Notes under the pieces: model-generated
Told to the model about the DNA's origin: nothing
Database searches by the model: none
Seen by the model: only the letters and a program-made list of their open reading frames with translations
DNA from: Minisyncoccota bacterium
GTDB lineage: Bacteria > Patescibacteriota > Minisyncoccia > 2-02-FULL-40-12 > GWA2-44-9
NCBI GenBank assembly: GCA_040899895.1
Contig: JBBDZW010000047.1
Location: 1-58,074, forward strand
DNA length: 58,074 bases
Direction: 5' to 3'
Program-made: the position numbers and the translations under genes
Shown here: positions 261-47,654 of the stretch, in pieces
How the letters are laid out: each line of letters opens with the position of its first letter
How positions within the stretch are numbered: position 1 is the stretch's first letter

Positions 261-944
261 ATGAGAAAAGATAAAGAAAAAGCCGTTGAATTACGTAAAC
301 AAGGACTTAGTTATAAAAAAATCCGGCAAGAACTTGGTATTCCAACAAGTACCCTTGCGGAATGGTTTAAAAATGAGCCTTGGTCCCAAGAAATAAAGTT
401 TCGCCTATCAAAAGAAGTGTCTCTTTCAAACGAAAAGGCTCTCAAGGCTATGATTGAGGCAAATCGAGAACGTTGGAGATTAAAACATGAGGAATACAGA
501 GAAGCAGCTATAAGAGAGTTTGAGAGATATAAAAACGACCCCCTATTTTTAGCAGGTATTATGCTGTATTGGGGAGAAGGAGAAAAACAACAAAAGTACT
601 CCACAGTAAGACTCTCAAACAGTGAGCCAGAGATGATTAGGATATTTTATCTTTTTTTAACCAAACTATTAAAAATTTCACCCGATAAAATAAGTGGCTG
701 GCTCCTTCTTTACCCCGATCTAGTAGATTCTGTTCAAAGGAACTTTTGGAGCAAAGCTACTGGAATACCAATTAATAAATTCACTAAATCTACGTATATT
801 AAAGGCCGACACCCCAGCAAACGTTTGTCTTACGGCGTTTGCACTGTTTATGTAAGTAGCCGCGCATTAAAAGAGCGGATACTCAAATGGCTAGAACTAT
901 ATCAAAACTTTCTTAGATCTCATGCCTTAAATCTTGAAAAATAG
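261..944 (+). CDS. HTH-domain protein with LAGLIDADG-like motif (putative homing-endonuclease-like protein), paralog A
   Basis: 227-aa ORF. N-terminal HTH-like segment LRKQGLSYKKIRQELGIPTSTLAEW. Central motif FLAGIMLYWGEGEK resembles a LAGLIDADG catalytic helix with two extra residues. Shares the NS(E/D)P..I..F and YW....T.IP...F blocks with ORFs 2290-3063 and 37107-37712. Confidence 0.5.
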   Translation: MRKDKEKAVELRKQGLSYKKIRQELGIPTSTLAEWFKNEPWSQEIKFRLSKEVSLSNEKALKAMIEANRERWRLKHEEYREAAIREFERYKNDPLFLAGIMLYWGEGEKQQKYSTVRLSNSEPEMIRIFYLFLTKLLKISPDKISGWLLLYPDLVDSVQRNFWSKATGIPINKFTKSTYIKGRHPSKRLSYGVCTVYVSSRALKERILKWLELYQNFLRSHALNLEK

Positions 945-7478: not shown

Positions 7479-7685
7479 TAACTAAATAAGAAGCCCGCCA
7501 CTCAGCGGACTAATCAGGATAAGAGTATTATATCAAAGAGCTGAATTACAGTCAAATCTCTCCGATATCCACAAAAATTCCTTTACAAAAGGGTTGCTTT
7601 GGTTAGATTGCAACAGAGTTCCTTGACCGGCTAAAGCACGGTCAGGAAACCACTCCGAGATGTTAACAAAAGAAGTGGCGGTAAA

Positions 7686-15131: not shown

Positions 15132-16223
15132 TTAGCTTCTGAGGGGCATTATCAAATAAACCAAATCCTTTCTGTTATTGCCGGGGCGCATTACCAACGG
15201 GCTACCCTGCCCTGTATATTCAAGAATAACGTCATTTGTATCCATAATCTTAAGACCGTCAAGAATATAGTGATAATTTAAAGAGATTTCAAACGGTTCG
15301 TTTTTTAATGTTGATGCCACTGCGGTTTCTATTTCTCCTTTATCGGAATTTTTTGCCGTAATATTAGTTTTTGTTTCAGCGCATTGAATTTTAATATCTG
15401 ATATATTTGAAGAAAATAGTCCGGCTAAACGTACATTTTTTTCTAAATCATTCTTATTTAATAAAACCTTTGATATAAATTTGTCGGGTATAACTTTTCT
15501 ATAATCTGGATAAGTTCCGTCTATTAAGCGTGAGACCATTTCAAAATCATCATTAGAAAAAGATATCTGGTTGTCGCTTAAATTCACAACCACTTCCCCG
15601 TCAAGTTCTCCGGATATCCTGGCAAGCTCTAAGACGGTGTTTCTTGGAATTATAAATGCCTGTTTGGATGAATTTTTAAAGTCTACGCTTTTTTCAGTCA
15701 ACCTAAAACTATCAGTGGATGCAAAAATAATTCTATCATTATCAAAACTTACAAATATACCAGCTAATTCCGGTCTTGATTCTGATAAAGCTGCTGAATC
15801 AATAACAGACATTAATGAATTTTTTAAAGATTTAGCGGGAATTATTGCTAATGGTTTATTTTTTATCTTAGGTATGATTGGAAAATCTTTAGCATCAAAA
15901 CCAAGTATTTGTATTTTGTAATGATCAGAGTTTATGTTTAAAATATTATTTTTAACACTTAAAGTTATCTTTTCGTCAGTCACATTTCCTGTAAAATCAG
16001 AAATTATCTTGGCTGGAACAGCAACTTGTCCAATGTCGTCAATTTTTGCTCCGATTATATAATTTATACCTATCTCCAGATTTGTTGCGGATAATCTTAA
16101 TCTTCCGTTTTCTGTTTTAAATAAAATATTGCTTAAAATAGGGAGTGTGGTGTTTCTGGAAACTATTTTTTCAACAACACTCAAAGCTTTTTTAAAATTT
16201 TTTTGATTAACAACTACTTTCAT
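15132..16223 (-). CDS. dnaN: DNA polymerase III beta sliding clamp
   Basis: 363 aa with three-domain clamp architecture. N-terminus KVVVNQKNFKKALSVVEKIVSRNTTLPILSNILF, C-terminus YLIMPLR. Synteny with dnaA. Confidence 0.92.
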   Translation of the reverse strand: MKVVVNQKNFKKALSVVEKIVSRNTTLPILSNILFKTENGRLRLSATNLEIGINYIIGAKIDDIGQVAVPAKIISDFTGNVTDEKITLSVKNNILNINSDHYKIQILGFDAKDFPIIPKIKNKPLAIIPAKSLKNSLMSVIDSAALSESRPELAGIFVSFDNDRIIFASTDSFRLTEKSVDFKNSSKQAFIIPRNTVLELARISGELDGEVVVNLSDNQISFSNDDFEMVSRLIDGTYPDYRKVIPDKFISKVLLNKNDLEKNVRLAGLFSSNISDIKIQCAETKTNITAKNSDKGEIETAVASTLKNEPFEISLNYHYILDGLKIMDTNDVILEYTGQGSPLVMRPGNNRKDLVYLIMPLRS

Positions 16224-16451: not shown

Positions 16452-17825
16452 CTACTTTTCAAAAGAATTATAAACACGTTCTTTGATGAGAACCAACTCT
16501 TGTTTGATGTCTTCATCTACAGAAATTCCTCCGCGTATTTTTTCACAAGCATGAATAACCGTAGAGTGATCTCTTCCGCCAAGTTTTTGACCTATCTCAG
16601 GAAAAGAAAGCTTAGTTTCTTCCCTTAAGAGAAACATGGCTACTTGTCTGGGCTTAACCACCTCTTTTTTGCGACTCCTTTTTATTAAATCGTTTGCGGA
16701 GATATTATAAAAATCGGCAACGGCCCTAAGTATTATCTGAGGAGACGTTTTTCTGTACGGCGTGTTTAGATAAGCATTTAAAATATTTTTGACCTCTTTA
16801 AGGTCCGGAATTCTATTATAGATTTGGCTAAATGCGACAACTCTGTTTAATGCTCCTTCAAGTTCTCTGACATTTTTTTGAATATGCGTAGCTATATATG
16901 AAAGGACGTCTTCTTCCAAGGCAGATTTTTTTTCGGAAGCCTTAAATTTGAGAATAGCCAGCCTAGTTTCAAAATCAGGCGCACCAACATCGGCAATCAT
17001 CCCACCTTGGAAGCGGGACTTTAAACGTTCTTCCATTGCCGGAATAGCCTGTGGCGGTCTATCCGAAGACAGTAATATTTGTTTATTTCTGCCGTAGAGC
17101 TCATTAAAAGTTGAAAAAACTATATCTTGAGTTTTTATTTTTCCGGCAATGAACTGAATATCGTCTATCATAAGAAGGTCTAGTTTGGCGTATCTATTTT
17201 TTAAATCTTCAATTGTTTTATTTCCTATAGATTCCACAATGTCGGCGGTTAATCTTTCTGCTGAAATATACAAAACCTTTTTGTCTTTCCCTTCACCCAC
17301 AACCTTGTTTCCTATTGACTGAAGAAGATGGGTTTTTCCCAAACCAACTCCACCGTAAAGAAATAGCGGATTGTAAAGTTTCCCAAGCTCTTTAGTGACT
17401 CTTAAAGAGGCTGCGTGGGCTAACTCATTGTTTGAACCGACAACAAAGGACTCAAATGTATATTTTTTATTTAAATTTGTTTGCTTATCTATGTCATAAT
17501 CTCGGGATGTTTCATCTTTTTCTTCCATCTCGCTATCCAACATAATTTTTGAAAAATCTTGTTTAAGAAGCTCAATTTTAGGCCGGCCTACGGCATATTT
17601 TACTTCTCTTATCTCAGGAGTGAGGACTCTTATTGAATCCAAGATCCTTCTGTTGAATTTATTTTCAAGCCACTCTTTTATAAAACCGTTGGGAACACTA
17701 ACCAAAACACAATTCTTATCACGGGAGAGTATGGTTGTATTTTTAAACCAGGTTGTGAAATTGGCCCTTGATATGGATAATTCCATTTCTCCCAAGACCG
17801 CTTTCCAGAGTTCTTCGTTTGTCAT
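16452..17825 (-). CDS. dnaA: chromosomal replication initiator DnaA
   Basis: Walker A GGVGLGKTHLL, Walker B LLMIDDIQF, sensor motifs, C-terminal DNA-binding domain (GGRDHSTVIHA). Confidence 0.95.
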   Translation of the reverse strand: MTNEELWKAVLGEMELSISRANFTTWFKNTTILSRDKNCVLVSVPNGFIKEWLENKFNRRILDSIRVLTPEIREVKYAVGRPKIELLKQDFSKIMLDSEMEEKDETSRDYDIDKQTNLNKKYTFESFVVGSNNELAHAASLRVTKELGKLYNPLFLYGGVGLGKTHLLQSIGNKVVGEGKDKKVLYISAERLTADIVESIGNKTIEDLKNRYAKLDLLMIDDIQFIAGKIKTQDIVFSTFNELYGRNKQILLSSDRPPQAIPAMEERLKSRFQGGMIADVGAPDFETRLAILKFKASEKKSALEEDVLSYIATHIQKNVRELEGALNRVVAFSQIYNRIPDLKEVKNILNAYLNTPYRKTSPQIILRAVADFYNISANDLIKRSRKKEVVKPRQVAMFLLREETKLSFPEIGQKLGGRDHSTVIHACEKIRGGISVDEDIKQELVLIKERVYNSFEK

Positions 17826-18487: not shown

Positions 18488-18711
18488 AAAATGCGGCAAT
18501 TAGGATTATTAATATATATAAAAATAATTCCAGTAGATTTTGGATTGGAAGCCCGTTTATTCTTTTCACAAACTGTAAATATCACCCAACGTGTTCAGAA
18601 TACACCACGCAAGCTATTGAGAAGTACGGGTTTTTCAATGGATTAGGCCGAGGAATTTTGAGGATACTGCGATGCAACCCCTTCTCTAAAGGAGGGATAG
18701 ATTTACCATAA
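18484..18711 (+). CDS. yidD: membrane protein insertion efficiency factor YidD
   Basis: [19 protein letters not shown]...[14 protein letters not shown] signature. Confidence 0.88.
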
Positions 18712-19403
18712 TGATGAATATGTTCAGCGAGATAATTTTTAGACCGCTTTTCAATATTACCGTATTTTTGTACAACATTCTTCCTTGGAATGACTTTGGC
18801 CTGGCAATAGTGGTTTTAACACTAATAATAAAACTAATTTTTATGCCTTTGACCCTCAAGTCAATAAGATCCCAAAAGAAACTTAGCCAACTTAACCCCA
18901 AAATAAAAGAAATCAAGGAAAAATATAAAAATGATACCAGAGCGCAATCTGAAGCCACGATGGCTTTTTATAAAGAAAAAGGAATTAATCCTCTGGCTGG
19001 ATGTTTGCCTCTCCTTATTCAAATCCCAATACTCATAGGTCTTTACCAGGCATTTATAGTGGGTCTTAAACCAGAAAGCTTGACCATGCTTTATGGTTTC
19101 GTAAAAAATCCAGGAATTGTAAACCAGATTTCCTTCGGTTTTATAGATATAGGTTCCAAGATGCCTGTTTTGGCTGTTGTTGCCGGTGGACTACAATTTA
19201 TCCAATCACGAACAAACCCCGCTTTGACCCAGGGTCCCGGCATGGCTCCGGAAATGAAAGCCTTGAACTCTCAAATGTTGTATTTTTTCCCGATTATGAT
19301 AATAATTATTGGTTGGAATTTGCCGGCCGGATTGTTGTTATATTGGCTGGCTACAACAGTTTTTTCAATCATTGAACAAACTTATGCTTCTAAATCTGCA
19401 TAA
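18711..19403 (+). CDS. yidC: membrane insertase YidC/Oxa1 (short form)
   Basis: 230 aa and polytopic. Conserved LKSIRSQKKLSQLNPKIKEIKEKYK amphipathic helix, GCLPLLIQIPI, LLLYW. Confidence 0.9.
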   Translation: MMNMFSEIIFRPLFNITVFLYNILPWNDFGLAIVVLTLIIKLIFMPLTLKSIRSQKKLSQLNPKIKEIKEKYKNDTRAQSEATMAFYKEKGINPLAGCLPLLIQIPILIGLYQAFIVGLKPESLTMLYGFVKNPGIVNQISFGFIDIGSKMPVLAVVAGGLQFIQSRTNPALTQGPGMAPEMKALNSQMLYFFPIMIIIIGWNLPAGLLLYWLATTVFSIIEQTYASKSA

Positions 19404-34059: not shown

Positions 34060-34527
34060 CAAGAGAGAGAATTTCTTCATTGTGTCATACATGACTGGCA
34101 GTTCCAAATAATCTATGCCTATTGCTGTCCATGCCAGCCATACCGGCAATATTATATCAGAAGTGTCCTTGAATTGCTTGATGACGAATTCATCCGTTAT
34201 CCAGAACAAGTGAAGCCATTGAGAGTTTAGCAGAACAAGAAACATTACGCTTTTCTTGATATCCCTTCTCGCGCGCAACTCATTCATGTATACCAGTGAG
34301 ACGGCAATGAGCGCCGGTATCTCCGTGTAATCAACCAGAATTATCAGCAGTTCCCAATTTGCGCCAAGGTTGGAAAATCCATAATCCAAAGTGCCTGGCA
34401 GGACAACGTTTGTGGTCAGCCAGAGAAGATGTATCAGCTGCCAGGAAAAAAGAATAGCGGCTATGCCGATATTTAGGTGAAGATTCTCTTCATACCAAAA
34501 CCAAAATTTATTTATTACTTTTTTCAA
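34045..34527 (-). CDS. hypothetical integral membrane protein
   Basis: 160 aa with 4 hydrophobic helices. Its 3' end overlaps tRNA-Ala on the opposite strand by 15 nt. Confidence 0.5.
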   Translation of the reverse strand: MKKVINKFWFWYEENLHLNIGIAAILFSWQLIHLLWLTTNVVLPGTLDYGFSNLGANWELLIILVDYTEIPALIAVSLVYMNELRARRDIKKSVMFLVLLNSQWLHLFWITDEFVIKQFKDTSDIILPVWLAWTAIGIDYLELPVMYDTMKKFSLLWTRR

Positions 34528-35390
34528 GTTAGTTTATTTAAAATTTTATCCAGGCAATTTGTGGGATATAAGTCTTTCGGATAAATTCCAATTAAATTAA
34601 TCTCGTTCTTTTTGCACAGTTTCTTTTTAAGTTTTATCTCTCGATCATAACGAGGGCTATCTTTGGCAAGACCAAAATATTCTATAAAAATTTTGCCATT
34701 ATTTATGGCCCAATCCGCCAAATGCCCGGTATTCGGATAGCAGGCGTTTCGCTCGTGAGGAATTTTATTTTTATGAAGCCAGTTATCAATAACAGCTTCA
34801 GAAATCGAATCACAGATGTGGCCATCTAATGATTTTGTTTTGGATCGTTTGTACATGCGGTGATCGTGTGAACGGTTGGGAGTAAGCCCGGCGGCTAAAA
34901 TGGTGTTATTCCAAGAACCAAACATATTGGCCGCTTTATCTGATATTTCCAGCACTTCTCTTTTGGCAGGAATCCGGTTGTTTTTCTGGGAGAATTCTTT
35001 TATTAAATCAATCATCTGCTCCTTTGTATATTTAAATCTACCCAATTTTCCACACTCTACGGAACAATATGGAGACCCCCGCCTAAATGGTTTTTCGCAT
35101 TTTTTACAGTACTTTTCAGGCCACTTTGGGAATTTTTTGTTATTTATAGTAGCAGAACAGGATCTTGAGCAGTAATTAAAAGAAGAGATTCCAGATAAAA
35201 TTCTATAAAATGTTTTCTTGCAACCGTCATTGCTACATATTAGCCATTTTCCGGTTTTCCTATATTCTCCTTCGCAATTTTTAGAACAAAAAGAGCGGTA
35301 ACCCAGCTGCTTATTAAAAACAACGTAAGACGTTTTGGTTAGGAATTGTCTATTACAAAAGTGGCACTGAACTTTAATTTTCGAGGCCAT
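34524..35390 (-). CDS. zinc-ribbon-rich protein with homing-endonuclease-associated repeat and nuclease-like C-terminus
   Basis: Three CxxC...(F/Y)CSxxC modules (FCSKNC, YCSRSC, YCSVEC). A middle repeat IPAKREVLEIS...FGSWNNTILAAGL. C-terminal DSISEAVIDNWL...DW...IEYFG resembles PD-(D/E)XK/Vsr-like endonuclease cores. Confidence 0.45.
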   Translation of the reverse strand: MASKIKVQCHFCNRQFLTKTSYVVFNKQLGYRSFCSKNCEGEYRKTGKWLICSNDGCKKTFYRILSGISSFNYCSRSCSATINNKKFPKWPEKYCKKCEKPFRRGSPYCSVECGKLGRFKYTKEQMIDLIKEFSQKNNRIPAKREVLEISDKAANMFGSWNNTILAAGLTPNRSHDHRMYKRSKTKSLDGHICDSISEAVIDNWLHKNKIPHERNACYPNTGHLADWAINNGKIFIEYFGLAKDSPRYDREIKLKKKLCKKNEINLIGIYPKDLYPTNCLDKILNKLT

Positions 35391-35468: not shown

Positions 35469-35543
35469 TCGGGACGCCGGGATTCGAACCCGGAAAAATC
35501 TCCTGAACCCGAATCAGGCGTGTTACCGTTACACTACGTCCCG
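35469..35543 (-). tRNA. tRNA-Pro (anticodon CGG)
   Basis: Reverse complement has acceptor CGGGACG/CGTCCCG (C1-G72, typical of bacterial tRNA-Pro), anticodon stem CCTGA/TCAGG with loop TTCGGGT, T arm CCGGG-TTCGAAT-CCCGG, A73. Confidence 0.82.
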
Positions 35544-45652: not shown

Positions 45653-46150
45653 TTAGTTTTGGCCCTGATCGTATACACAATCTATTACCGCTCCCGTTGT
45701 ACAGTTAACACCGTTTGCGTCTGCTCCATCTCGACCTTGTCCGGTCCAACCGACAGAAGAGTTAATATCCGCATCGCTTTTTAGCGCTTGGGAGGCTTGC
45801 TCAAGTTCTGCCCAAATCATATACCTATTGCCGCCATTGTAGGCGTAGTTATAAGTATGGGGAGCAACATTTAGCGGGTCATTTGGCAATTGAGTCAAAT
45901 ATTTAGGAACTAAAAGAGCGGCTAGTCCGGCATATGTTGCCTGCTGGGGATATGTCCCGGCATCATCAAAGTACAACTCCGATGCAGTTCGGACCTGGTT
46001 TACATCGGCAATTCTCTTGGCGTCCCTGGCTCTTTGTCTGGCTATTCCCAACTGAAGCAAGAGGAGAGAGGCAAGAATACCGATGATTGCTATTACGACC
46101 AAAAGCTCGACCAAGGTGAAACCTTTTTGAAGTTTTTGTTTTTTATTCAT
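45653..46150 (-). CDS. pilA: major type IV pilin
   Basis: MNKKQKLQKGFTLVELLVVIAIIGILASLLL class III signal peptide. 165 aa with a C-terminal Cys pair and its own terminator. Confidence 0.88.
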   Translation of the reverse strand: MNKKQKLQKGFTLVELLVVIAIIGILASLLLLQLGIARQRARDAKRIADVNQVRTASELYFDDAGTYPQQATYAGLAALLVPKYLTQLPNDPLNVAPHTYNYAYNGGNRYMIWAELEQASQALKSDADINSSVGWTGQGRDGADANGVNCTTGAVIDCVYDQGQN

Positions 46151-46269
46151 CCCGTACGAAGTAGCTGCTGTGCAGTTATGGAACGACCACTATCTGCGCA
46201 TAACAGCTATATTAATTAGATGACATCCCGCTCGTTTAACCTGTTAAGGCTACTTCGTTCGGGATTCAT
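46151..46269 (-). promoter_or_regulatory. structured 5' leader of pilA (15-bp closing helix, decoy ATGAAT, 17-codon uORF)
   Basis: Minus strand reads ATGAAT-CCCGAACGAAGTAGCC-(82 nt)-GCTACTTCGTACGGG-ATGAAT(pilA). TATAAT at 46277-46282 lies 7 nt upstream of the first ATG. Same architecture as 47534-47654. Confidence 0.65.
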
Positions 46270-46324
46270 AGTTTTAATTATACTACACTTATTAAATTTA
46301 AGTTATCAACATTACATTAGTCAA

Positions 46325-47533
46325 CTAACTGACCCCAACTAAGTTATAAATCGGTAACAAAATGGCTGATACCAGAATTGCGACGGCTACGCCAAGGACC
46401 AGGACCAAGATCGGTTCAATAAGCTGGGAAATACTTCCAATGGCGTTCTCCGATTCCGATTTATAGTATCGGGAGATATGAGCAAGCATAAAGTCAAGTT
46501 TACCCGTTTTCTCGCCTATGGCCACCATAGAGGTGACCAGAGGCGGGATCTCGGTATATTTGGAGAATGATTCGGATATGGTACCCCCTCCCCTGACGTT
46601 CTCCTCGGCATCGAGAAGTATTTTTTGGTAATTTATGTTCCCGACCAGGTCGGAAGTGATACGCAGGGCGTCAAGGATGGGTATGCCCGACTTGATAAGA
46701 GTAGATAAGCTTTCGGATATGCGGGCAAGATATAAGCTTCGGACAACCGAGCCAAGAGATGGCATGGTGATCTTAAGATTGTCCAGCCACGCTCTTCCCG
46801 AAGGAGTTCCGATATATCTCCAGATCCCGACGATTAAGCCGACCCAAAACACAACGAGGAAAAGAAGATACTGGTTAACAAAGGACGTGACCCATATAAG
46901 CATCCTGGTGGTTATGGGAAGTTGAACGTCGCCTATGTCTTTGAATATGGTCAACAACTGCGGAAGCACATAGACGACCATTATCGCTGTTACCAGTATT
47001 AAGGCGAACACAACGAATGCCGGATAGGCCAAGGCGCCTTTTATCTTAGAGTTAATGGACTGGCTTCTTTCCAGGTAATCGGCCAGATATAGCAGGGATT
47101 CGTGAAGTTTTCCCGAGACTTCTCCGGACTGGACGAGCTTAATGTAAAAAGATCCGAAAAGTTCGGGGTGAGCCGCCAAAGCGTTGGACAAAGATTGTCC
47201 GCTCTCCACCGCCTCGGATACTTCGGTGAGGACCTTTTTGAATATCGTCTTTTCAACTTGCTTGGCCAGCGTTCTTAACCCCTCGGCCAAGGGCATATCC
47301 GCGTCTATTAGCGTGGATAATTGTCTGGTGAACAGAACCACATCTTTATTAGACGTTTTAGAGAAATATTTTGATACGTCAGAGGTTAAAACTCCGGTAT
47401 CAGTCGGGTTAAGGGATAGAATCGTATAACCTTTTAACTGCAGAGTTGTAACAGCAGTGTTTTCGTCCGGAGCTTCTACTGCTCCTTCAAGCATTTCTCC
47501 TGTTTGAGTTCGGATTTTATATTTAAAATTCAT
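46325..47533 (-). CDS. pilC: type IV pilus platform protein PilC (GspF family)
   Basis: 402 aa, duplicated T2SSF domains, 3 TM helices. Confidence 0.9.
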   Translation of the reverse strand: MNFKYKIRTQTGEMLEGAVEAPDENTAVTTLQLKGYTILSLNPTDTGVLTSDVSKYFSKTSNKDVVLFTRQLSTLIDADMPLAEGLRTLAKQVEKTIFKKVLTEVSEAVESGQSLSNALAAHPELFGSFYIKLVQSGEVSGKLHESLLYLADYLERSQSINSKIKGALAYPAFVVFALILVTAIMVVYVLPQLLTIFKDIGDVQLPITTRMLIWVTSFVNQYLLFLVVFWVGLIVGIWRYIGTPSGRAWLDNLKITMPSLGSVVRSLYLARISESLSTLIKSGIPILDALRITSDLVGNINYQKILLDAEENVRGGGTISESFSKYTEIPPLVTSMVAIGEKTGKLDFMLAHISRYYKSESENAIGSISQLIEPILVLVLGVAVAILVSAILLPIYNLVGVS

Positions 47534-47654
47534 CCCGTACGAAGTAGCGCAAAGCGTGTGAGGTCAAACTTCATCCGCCATGCGCTAATTATTATTGTTT
47601 TATTGATAGTCATATTTATTTAAACCCGTTAGGGCTACTTCGTACGGGATTCAT
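47534..47654 (-). promoter_or_regulatory. structured 5' leader of pilC (15-bp perfect closing helix, decoy ATGAAT, 12-codon uORF)
   Basis: Minus strand reads ATGAAT-CCCGTACGAAGTAGCC-(84 nt)-GCTACTTCGTACGGG-ATGAAT(pilC). The arms are identical to the pilA leader except for one base. Confidence 0.65.

Follow-up and report, generated by a model that had tools for sequence, protein, structure and literature searches.

The stretch of DNA analysed here (the window) comprises 58,074 nucleotides of contig JBBDZW010000047.1, from a Minisyncoccota bacterium, and carries a type IV pilus operon recognized by Pfam from PilM/N/O, PilB (T2SSE), PilT, PilC (T2SSF), a pilin (N_methyl), PilD, and minor pilins. 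Directly in front of two of its genes, pilA and pilC, lies a small palindromic element bordered on both sides by the hexamer ATGAAT. An initial annotation of this DNA took the arrangement for a conserved structured leader, with a decoy start codon and an upstream open reading frame (uORF), that acts as a translational switch. We read the pilA hairpin as a copy of a small mobile element, not as a pilus-specific regulatory leader. The features of the two copies, all on the minus strand, are as follows.

46277..46282 (-): TATAAT, the -10 box of the original, putatively leaderless pilA promoter, outside the element and 7 nt before the old start codon (read from the sequence)
46264..46269 (-): ATGAAT, the old pilA start and 5' copy of the duplicated target, now a decoy (empty sites hold one ATGAAT)
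46151..46263 (-): the palindromic element at pilA, of the main subfamily (nhmmer 95 bits, E = 2e-27)
46263-46249 (-): 5' arm of the pilA copy, CCCGAACGAAGTAGC, 15 nt
about 46249-40 (-): small hairpin of the pilA copy, CCUUAACAGG
46175-65 (-): hairpin of the pilA copy, CUGCACAGCAG
46165-46151 (-): 3' arm of the pilA copy, GCTACTTCGTACGGG, 15 nt
46269-46216 (-): uORF, MNPERSSLNRLNERDVI plus stop, 17 codons, opened by the decoy ATG
46150-46148 (-): pilA ATG, rebuilt from the last element base and the duplicated TG
45653..46150 (-): pilA, type IV pilin, 165 aa (Pfam PF07963 N_methyl, E = 1.5e-9)
47649..47654 (-): ATGAAT, the old pilC start, now a decoy opening a 12-codon ORF that ends at 47616
47534..47648 (-): palindromic element, pilC copy, another subfamily with its own interior (profile 66 bits)
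47648-47634 and 47548-47534 (-): 5' and 3' arms of the pilC copy, perfectly paired, 85 nt apart
46325..47533 (-): pilC, T2SSF platform protein, 402 aa, starting at the rebuilt ATG 47533 (Pfam)

The order of ATGAAT, arm, spacer, arm, and ATGAAT, as first described, holds for both copies, and so does the 17-codon uORF at pilA, whose stop falls in the A-rich centre of the element. The pilA arms pair at 14 of 15 positions, with a single A.A mismatch, and the 3' arm abuts the ATG; the spacer between them is 83 nt, not the 82 nt given at first. At pilC, the decoy ATGAAT begins 11 nt past the pilT stop. Arm sequence is confined to four places in the window, namely, both arms of both copies; with up to three mismatches allowed there are five matches against 1.3 expected, a number reached by none of 100 shuffles. 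The predicted RNA folds of the two copies have z scores of -4.3 and -6.3, and none of 200 shuffles was equally stable. The copies belong to different subfamilies with an interior identity of 55%, and the pilC-copy interior has one close relative only among the loci collected, L032:197-323, in front of rplB.

Contigs of six relatives (L141 to L146) were traced from PilC homologs with 89, 85, 82, 74, and 72% identity and, for L146, 71%. The gap between pilT and pilC is 1 to 19 nt in five of them (L141 to L145), compared to 132 nt in the window, and that between pilC and pilA is 0 to 91 nt in all six, compared to 174 nt. A search of the six loci with a profile of the element gave no copy, even at E <= 10. 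The empty-site alleles with a single ATGAAT, suggested at the outset as something to look for, were found. With a slash marking the junction, the pilC site of L141 reads ...cttgtctaaGAT/atgaatttcaaatat, with one ATGAAT, and that of L144 reads ...taaAATAAG/atgaattttt; the pilA sites of L144 and L145 read TATAATTAAAAC/atgaataaacaa and TAAAATTAAAACT/ATGAATAAAAGA, each with a single ATGAAT. Several empty orthologous sites retain one ATGAA start, and the pilA -10 box stands at the window spacing before the single ATG in the element-free L144, L145, and L146 (TATAATTAAAAT/ATG in the last). Because the empty junctions hold one ATGAAT and the pilA -10 box keeps the same spacing, both window copies are lineage-specific insertions that duplicated the first bases of their genes. 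Such presence/absence polymorphism at non-homologous loci is a property of MITEs (miniature transposable elements with inverted repeats).

The pilT-pilC spacer of L146 holds a different, nearly perfect palindrome of 271 nt (L146:2230-2500; predicted -99.9 kcal/mol). Its 3' end is the ordinary spacer as found in L145 and its 5' end is that spacer inverted, as though either the spacer had been duplicated in inverted orientation or a further palindrome had inserted at this junction.

Further copies were sought with an exact-pattern scan, in which only the inner parts of the two arms served as the query, of public metagenomes and of GTDB species representatives. The metagenomes gave 104 stretches, mainly from groundwater (Hainich, Rifle), and the species representatives gave 26, nearly all in metagenome-assembled genomes (MAGs) of Candidatus Yanofskybacteria or other Paceibacteria/Patescibacteria, with up to 5 exact copies per Yanofskybacteria MAG. 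A profile search of all fetched loci then yielded 142 copies, 107 of them unique; counts out of 107 refer to these unique copies. The long form of the element measures about 105 to 125 bp and ends in the inverted repeats YCCCGWACGAAG(TAGC)...(GCTA)CTTCGTWCGGGR. All copies share one layout: ATGRAT, CCCGWACGAAGTAGC, a small hairpin CCYUAACRGG, a variable A-rich interior, a second small hairpin, GCTACTTCGTWCGGG, and ATGRA. The terminal inverted repeats, again a MITE property, are kept in every copy, with arms of 15 to 17 bp. Compensatory arm changes, which had been proposed as a check, are present: diverged subfamilies alter both arms in concert, for example, CCCGTTAGAAGTCGC with GCGACTTCTAACGGG, and ...ACAAAG... 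with ...CTTTGT.... Position 5 of the 5' arm (A at window position 46259, T at 47644) gives CCCGAACG, with the A.A mismatch, in 58 of 107 copies and CCCGTACG in the other 49. This position switches state among otherwise near-identical copies, and the 3' arm is nearly always CGTACGGG.

The genes downstream of the element are unrelated to one another and include rpmJ, infA, ssb, secE, rpsQ, rpmI, rplB, hppA, tig, nusA, topA, polA, hpf, murJ, the gene for RNase HII, pilT, and a pilin gene. Both tig and nusA have the element in front of them in other genomes and lack it in the window, and in the metagenome sample that holds L033 and L053 identical elements precede two different genes. These findings bear directly on the proposal that pilin and platform synthesis are coupled through the uORF. 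Two copies do stand in one operon, and in both a decoy AUG is followed by a helix that reaches up to the real AUG, as that proposal would have it. However, no copy precedes pilA or pilC in the six relatives, whose PilC proteins are 71 to 89% identical, even though conservation of the arms and uORF at these genes was what the proposal predicted; the two window copies come from different subfamilies; and dozens of unrelated genes are preceded by the same element. The conserved association with one gene family expected of a gene-specific leader or riboswitch is lacking, both in the relatives and elsewhere. The uORF, for which conservation of the frame had been anticipated, ranges from 3 to >30 codons, with neither the frame nor any peptide conserved. 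What had been named at the outset as refuting a pilus-specific switch is thus what was observed, and we regard such a switch as very improbable.

Conservation among the copies begins sharply at -6 and ends at +5, and TGRA is the same on both sides in 89 of 107 copies. At position 4, the 5' and 3' copies are A and A in 78 cases, G and G in 19, A and G in 8, and G and A in none. The 5' hexamer tracks the start of its own gene: ATGAAT goes with ATGAA, ATGGAT with ATGGA, ATGAGT with ATGAGT, and GTGAAT with ATGAA, and in one copy ATAAAT goes with ATAAA, the true ATG sitting 15 nt further on. The duplications are thus local and depend on the site, as in MITEs, and include the variants TGAG, TGGA, TAAA, TTGA, and TCAA. 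The 5' hexamer invariably ends in T, and an A invariably follows the 3' arm; the hexamer opens with A in 86%, with G in 5%, and with T in 8% of copies. The 5' triplet is ATG in 87, GTG in 5, and TTG in 1 of 107, co-varying with the first bases of the gene itself, and the 3' copy is ATG in 105 of 107, even where the 5' copy is GTG or TTG.

The simplest parse of these patterns is an element YCCCG...CGGGR with a 4-bp target duplication, T-G-R-A, in which the terminal A of the element, together with the duplicated TG, restores an ATG that keeps the frame of the gene. With ...CGGGA as the end of the element and TGRA duplicated, ATG-RAN is re-created right after the 3' arm and the ORF stays intact; the boundaries cannot be drawn more finely from the sequence, because ends and target overlap. 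In the window, separate insertions entered the first codons of a leaderless pilA and of an operon-internal pilC. Such an insertion leaves the original start as a decoy, followed by the 5' arm. An MITE with an ATGAAT duplication at two start codons had been offered as an alternative to the switch, and the duplication and the empty sites bear that part out; what does not hold is a plain MITE at random positions, for 106 of 107 copies lie at starts.

The flanking repeats had also suggested a programmed translational bypass or shunt, in which ribosomes would take off at the first AUG-RAU and land at the second, since identical pentamers or hexamers flank a stable hairpin. We found no support for it and give it almost no credence. 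The gap would be 105 to 125 nt, and take-off after 1 or 2 codons would leave no possibility of a nascent-peptide signal. Features of T4 gene 60-type bypass are missing, in that no stop follows AUG-RAU and only 1 or 2 residues precede the hairpin. Many of the genes have AAA, AAG, or GAA as their second codon, compared to AAU or GAU in the 5' copy, so that the two often disagree in the third base or in the amino acid encoded; in about 13% of copies a 5' start codon is missing altogether; and a normal AUG at the landing site makes a bypass unneeded.

Placement and orientation are the most striking properties of the long form. Of the 107 unique copies, 106 sit directly 5' of the codon at which a real gene starts, and the orientation relative to the gene is the same in all 107. 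The window contains 267 ATGRA sites, 15 of which (5.6%) are start codons, and among its non-coding ATGRA sites 33% are starts. Insertion in either orientation, governed by the motif alone, as would be expected of an MITE, is not what is seen, and more than a plain MITE must be at work, either strand-specific selection or directional targeting. In 94 of 107 long copies every one of the three frames contains a stop, and because of these stops long forms cannot survive inside ORFs; the stops account neither for the dearth of intergenic copies nor for the fixed orientation. Three further candidates were rejected. A need for the uORF to stop does not set the orientation, given that a simulated inverted element still stops the uORF in 85 of 107 copies, compared to the 100 of 107 observed. 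For the window copies, prediction gave no antisense terminator. Leaderless transcription start sites fail as the target in that a -10 box at a suitable distance is present at only 37% of sites. The insertion sites are in fact mixed, 37% having a leaderless-type -10 box (as at pilA) and 27% lying 0 to 13 nt past the upstream ORF (as at pilC), and their common denominator is a working start codon, not a promoter.

One way to accommodate these counts is that the long form is a start-codon-specific and strand-specific mobile module, either through machinery that finds functional starts or as a recruited translation or stability leader. On the first route, targeting could, for example, exploit the coding strand where it is single-stranded, or a core sequence brought along from the donor site; on the second, the element could be a portable translation- or stability-control leader for a host that initiates without a Shine-Dalgarno (SD) sequence. 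This is a possibility that we hold tentatively and rather doubt. If it were true, a transposable element that re-creates start codons would be a new way for mobile DNA to inhabit essential bacterial genes.

Short relatives of the element, 48 to 75 nt long, retain only the outer 11 to 12 bp of the arms around a different, GC-rich interior and have no stop codon in any of six frames. Nine were found, four in frame inside conserved proteins and the remainder intergenic or at a start codon. The in-frame examples are as follows.

L023:10291-10338: in PNPase (S1 domain)
L032:616-663: in ribosomal protein L23
L012:1667-1735: in a GH1 glycosidase
L073:6035-6109: in Ndk

All four share the codon phase of the decoy ORF and add 16 to 25 residues, e.g., PERSREGSQRASASYG; L038 has an L23 ortholog without the insert. 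The duplications of the short forms, TGAG, TCAA, TTGA, and TGGA, obey the same 4-bp rule. It would appear that long forms, with stops in all frames, persist at start codons only, and that stop-free short forms can persist in frame within ORFs. Intron-like removal is ruled out, as long forms are never inside ORFs.

The interiors raise the question of whether the RNA itself is under selection. They are 55 to 84% identical between hosts whose third codon (synonymous) positions are saturated. Copies before the same gene are barely closer to each other than random pairs (0.72 compared to 0.66), which rules out vertical inheritance with neutral decay, and copies within one contig often belong to different subfamilies. 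This pattern resembles that of an active family whose copies turn over or undergo gene conversion; a selected RNA function also fits. At two infA loci, L033:8355-8478 and L051:2785-2909, the flanks and the coding third positions are identical and the elements are about 10% apart, and the L033 infA element is identical to the element at L053:480-603, before another gene in the same sample. This arrangement suggests gene conversion or replacement between copies.

One rival reading is a domesticated cis-acting RNA module, spread by transposition and kept at starts for a useful RNA in one orientation; possible roles are a 5' stem stabilising leaderless mRNAs, a landing or standby platform where SD sequences are missing, or a site for a global regulator of growth-related genes. 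The single orientation (107 of 107) and the starts (106 of 107, compared to 33% expected among non-coding ATGRA) speak for it, as do interiors far better conserved than synonymous sites and a gene set enriched in highly expressed housekeeping genes. Pairing is kept despite changes on both sides in the arms and the two small hairpins beside them, and only there; P3 is C-G in 41 copies, U-A in 20, and U-G in 4. However, the interior is swapped wholesale between subfamilies and absent in the short forms, and beyond the arms and one hairpin no core that could bind a ligand or protein is conserved. In the closest relatives these genes lack the element, with no visible compensation, and covariation outside P3 is weak. 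Rfam gave no family match, either at the gathering threshold over the whole window or at E <= 10 over 2 kb, returning only tRNAs and matches at chance level; no known ribozyme, riboswitch, or leader matches. We think a domesticated module unlikely.

The remaining question is how genes are expressed behind such a helix. The remark made at the outset that no SD sequence is visible before pilA is true but not special to pilA and pilC, since only 3 of 54 window genes have an SD-like motif. Many genes of the window have a TATAAT-like box 6 to 8 nt before the ATG (e.g., the starts at 9362-, 17825, 35390, 37712, and 56004), and the host appears to initiate mostly without SD sequences, often on what would be leaderless mRNAs. 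In such a host, the transcript of an occupied start would fold into a helix of at least 15 to 17 bp with both AUGs at its base, and the closed helix would mask both. Ribosomes would still start at the old AUG, which keeps its native context (5'-terminal, or reached by reinitiation after the upstream stop), enter the 5' arm, unwind the helix, and halt in the stop-rich, A-rich centre. The rebuilt AUG would thereby become single-stranded and open to SD-independent initiation, and the insertion would be nearly neutral for the host gene. In 100 of 107 copies the uORF ends before the second AUG (AUG2), the median gap from stop to AUG2 being 65 nt, and in a few copies its stop is a UGA overlapping AUG2. 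Melting of the helix by translation of the decoy ORF would be a reasonable account of continued expression of the host gene. Something else must contribute, because a 5' start codon is missing from about 13% of copies.

The chief mechanistic alternative to this relay is that the helix is cleaved, for example by RNase III. Cleavage would remove the decoy and hairpin and leave a short or near-leaderless 5' end at the rebuilt AUG. The helix, about 17 to 22 bp with flanking A-U and U-A pairs, is of the size of an RNase III substrate; the host translates without SD sequences, often from 5'-terminal AUGs; and the copies that lack a 5' start codon still precede intact essential genes. The sequence data are silent on cleavage, no known self-cleaving ribozyme matches, and short forms inside ORFs, which have the same arms, would be cut too, destroying their mRNAs. 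We consider an RNA processing site quite improbable.

Taken together, the pilA feature is probably one copy of a non-autonomous, MITE-like palindromic family that is confined to Yanofskybacteria and related Paceibacteria of the Candidate Phyla Radiation and inserts at start codons, the host gene putatively being expressed by relay. Several observations weigh against this explanation. Symmetric terminal inverted repeats should give insertions in both orientations and at intergenic ATGRA sites, and we observed one orientation, with 106 of 107 copies at starts. The interior identity between saturated hosts fits a selected function as well as an active family. The relay is incomplete, with uORF stops at a median of 65 nt before AUG2 and about 13% of copies without a start codon at the 5' hexamer. 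The arms have 8 wobble pairs of the G.U type and 8 of the A.C type, with no sense-strand bias, so that the G.U bias that might have served as proof of RNA pairing is uninformative. Finally, a transposase or autonomous element with the same ends was looked for in the window (by Pfam), across roughly 1 Mb of related loci, and in IMG/VR, and none turned up.

Other origins and contents of the element were considered and set aside. ARAGORN gave no tRNA-like structure at the element. An internal outward promoter is not supported, as the -10-like TATAAC of the main subfamily is not kept in other copies and subfamilies and a consensus scan stayed at chance level. A phage origin was rejected after a single-arm scan of IMG/VR gave only 10 one-armed chance matches. 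In the one library searched, the literature on start codons, inverted repeats, SD sequences, and MITEs in Candidate Phyla Radiation (CPR)/Patescibacteria describes no such element.

Some loci show irregularities around the element. Four hppA loci (L001, L003, L079, and L093) have the same element with differing flanks. L001 and L093 have the downstream hppA in common and not the upstream flank, and in L003 the ATG of the element is joined to about codon 31 of hppA, the first 30 or so codons being deleted. These differences could reflect rearrangement or deletion where the element sits, or else chimeric assembly across a repeat. Solo or degenerate arms (ATGAATCCCGAACGAGACAGC...) occur at L069 (about 7590-7620, minus strand) and L027 (about 666-681, minus strand). 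CGGGAT remnants and solo or degenerate arms lie directly 5' of intact copies, and are also present in the 5' flanks in L014, L028, and L030. Such remains may have been left by earlier insertions, or by excision, at these sites.

Elsewhere in the window, a 288-aa ORF at 34524-35390 on the minus strand matches the 'homing endonuclease associated repeat' PF18780 (E = 1.8e-9) and adjoins a tRNA-Pro at 35469-35543. It is the only mobile-DNA-like protein signature seen in the window. The genes dnaA (16452-17825), dnaN (15132-16223), and yidC (18711-19403) all lie inside the window, which spans the dnaA-dnaN region and probably holds the chromosomal replication origin; between about 2.3 and 53 kb the minus strand carries most of the genes.

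The family shows a route by which selfish DNA can persist in a streamlined, gene-dense CPR genome, namely, insertion into a first codon with the ATG rebuilt. It also supplies dozens of natural constructs, each made of an old AUG, a stable helix, and a new AUG, before essential genes in a host that is nearly free of SD sequences and has many apparently leaderless genes, and through them start-site choice in SD-poor bacteria becomes directly testable. For annotation the insertions are a hazard, as they can be mistaken for regulatory leaders, uORFs, or N-terminal extensions, and the repeats can break or mis-join metagenome assemblies.

Among known systems, integron attC sites have the inverse core RYYYAAC and the core GTTRRRY at their ends and lie at the 3' end of mobile gene cassettes. 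The ends of the present element are YCCCGWACG...CGTWCGGGR, and its flanks are syntenic housekeeping genes, not cassettes. Elements derived from IS200/IS605 (PATE, REP/RAYT) have subterminal hairpins, no terminal inverted repeats, and no target duplication, and insert 3' of a fixed tetra- or pentanucleotide; the long terminal inverted repeats and the duplicated flank that varies with the site set the present family apart from them. Starts controlled by a uORF or leader peptide, or masked by long-range pairing (e.g., the MS2 replicase start and the erm/cat leaders), are similar in that a short uORF overlaps the helix strand opposite the one abutting the real start, so that its translation would expose that start. 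Those, however, are gene-specific, conserved devices, whereas here the arrangement is a gene-unspecific by-product of insertion.

The closer parallels are with other small repeats. Like bacterial MITEs and the Correia/NEMIS elements of Neisseria, the family is small and non-coding, has terminal inverted repeats and a target-site duplication, occupies many unrelated loci in subfamilies with differing interiors, and would be co-transcribed with the adjacent gene as a long RNA hairpin. Correia elements duplicate TA and lie in either orientation at various intergenic places, and their long helix is cut by RNase III. The family described here differs in its T-G-R-A duplication, its fixed orientation, and the placement of 106 of 107 long copies at a start codon, and, relative to MITEs and Correia elements alike, in a low copy number per genome (2 to 5 or more exact copies).

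Rickettsia palindromic elements (RPE) are reportedly selfish palindromic DNA inside protein-coding genes. They resemble the present family as palindromic repeats of 50 to 150 bp in a small, reduced genome, with in-frame translated copies in conserved proteins (here the short forms only, in PNPase, L23, GH1, and Ndk), presence or absence between orthologs, and no known transposase. The present family has, in addition, clear terminal inverted repeats and a 4-bp duplication, and its long form is not translated through but sits at the start codon and rebuilds it, which to our knowledge has not been reported for RPEs. The likeness is one of kind, not of homology; the host clade is unrelated, and no sequence relationship is expected.

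The introner elements of algae and fungi are DNA transposons that complete a splice site with the target duplication and are removed by the spliceosome. The likeness to them is conceptual: an element end and a duplicated target re-create a signal that the host needs, here the ATG and there the splice site, and insertion into a gene is tolerated because that signal is restored. Introners are eukaryotic and spliced, whereas here there is no sign of RNA removal and the gene is re-started. By analogy, the rebuilding of a start codon by the long form would be closest in concept to these introner elements.

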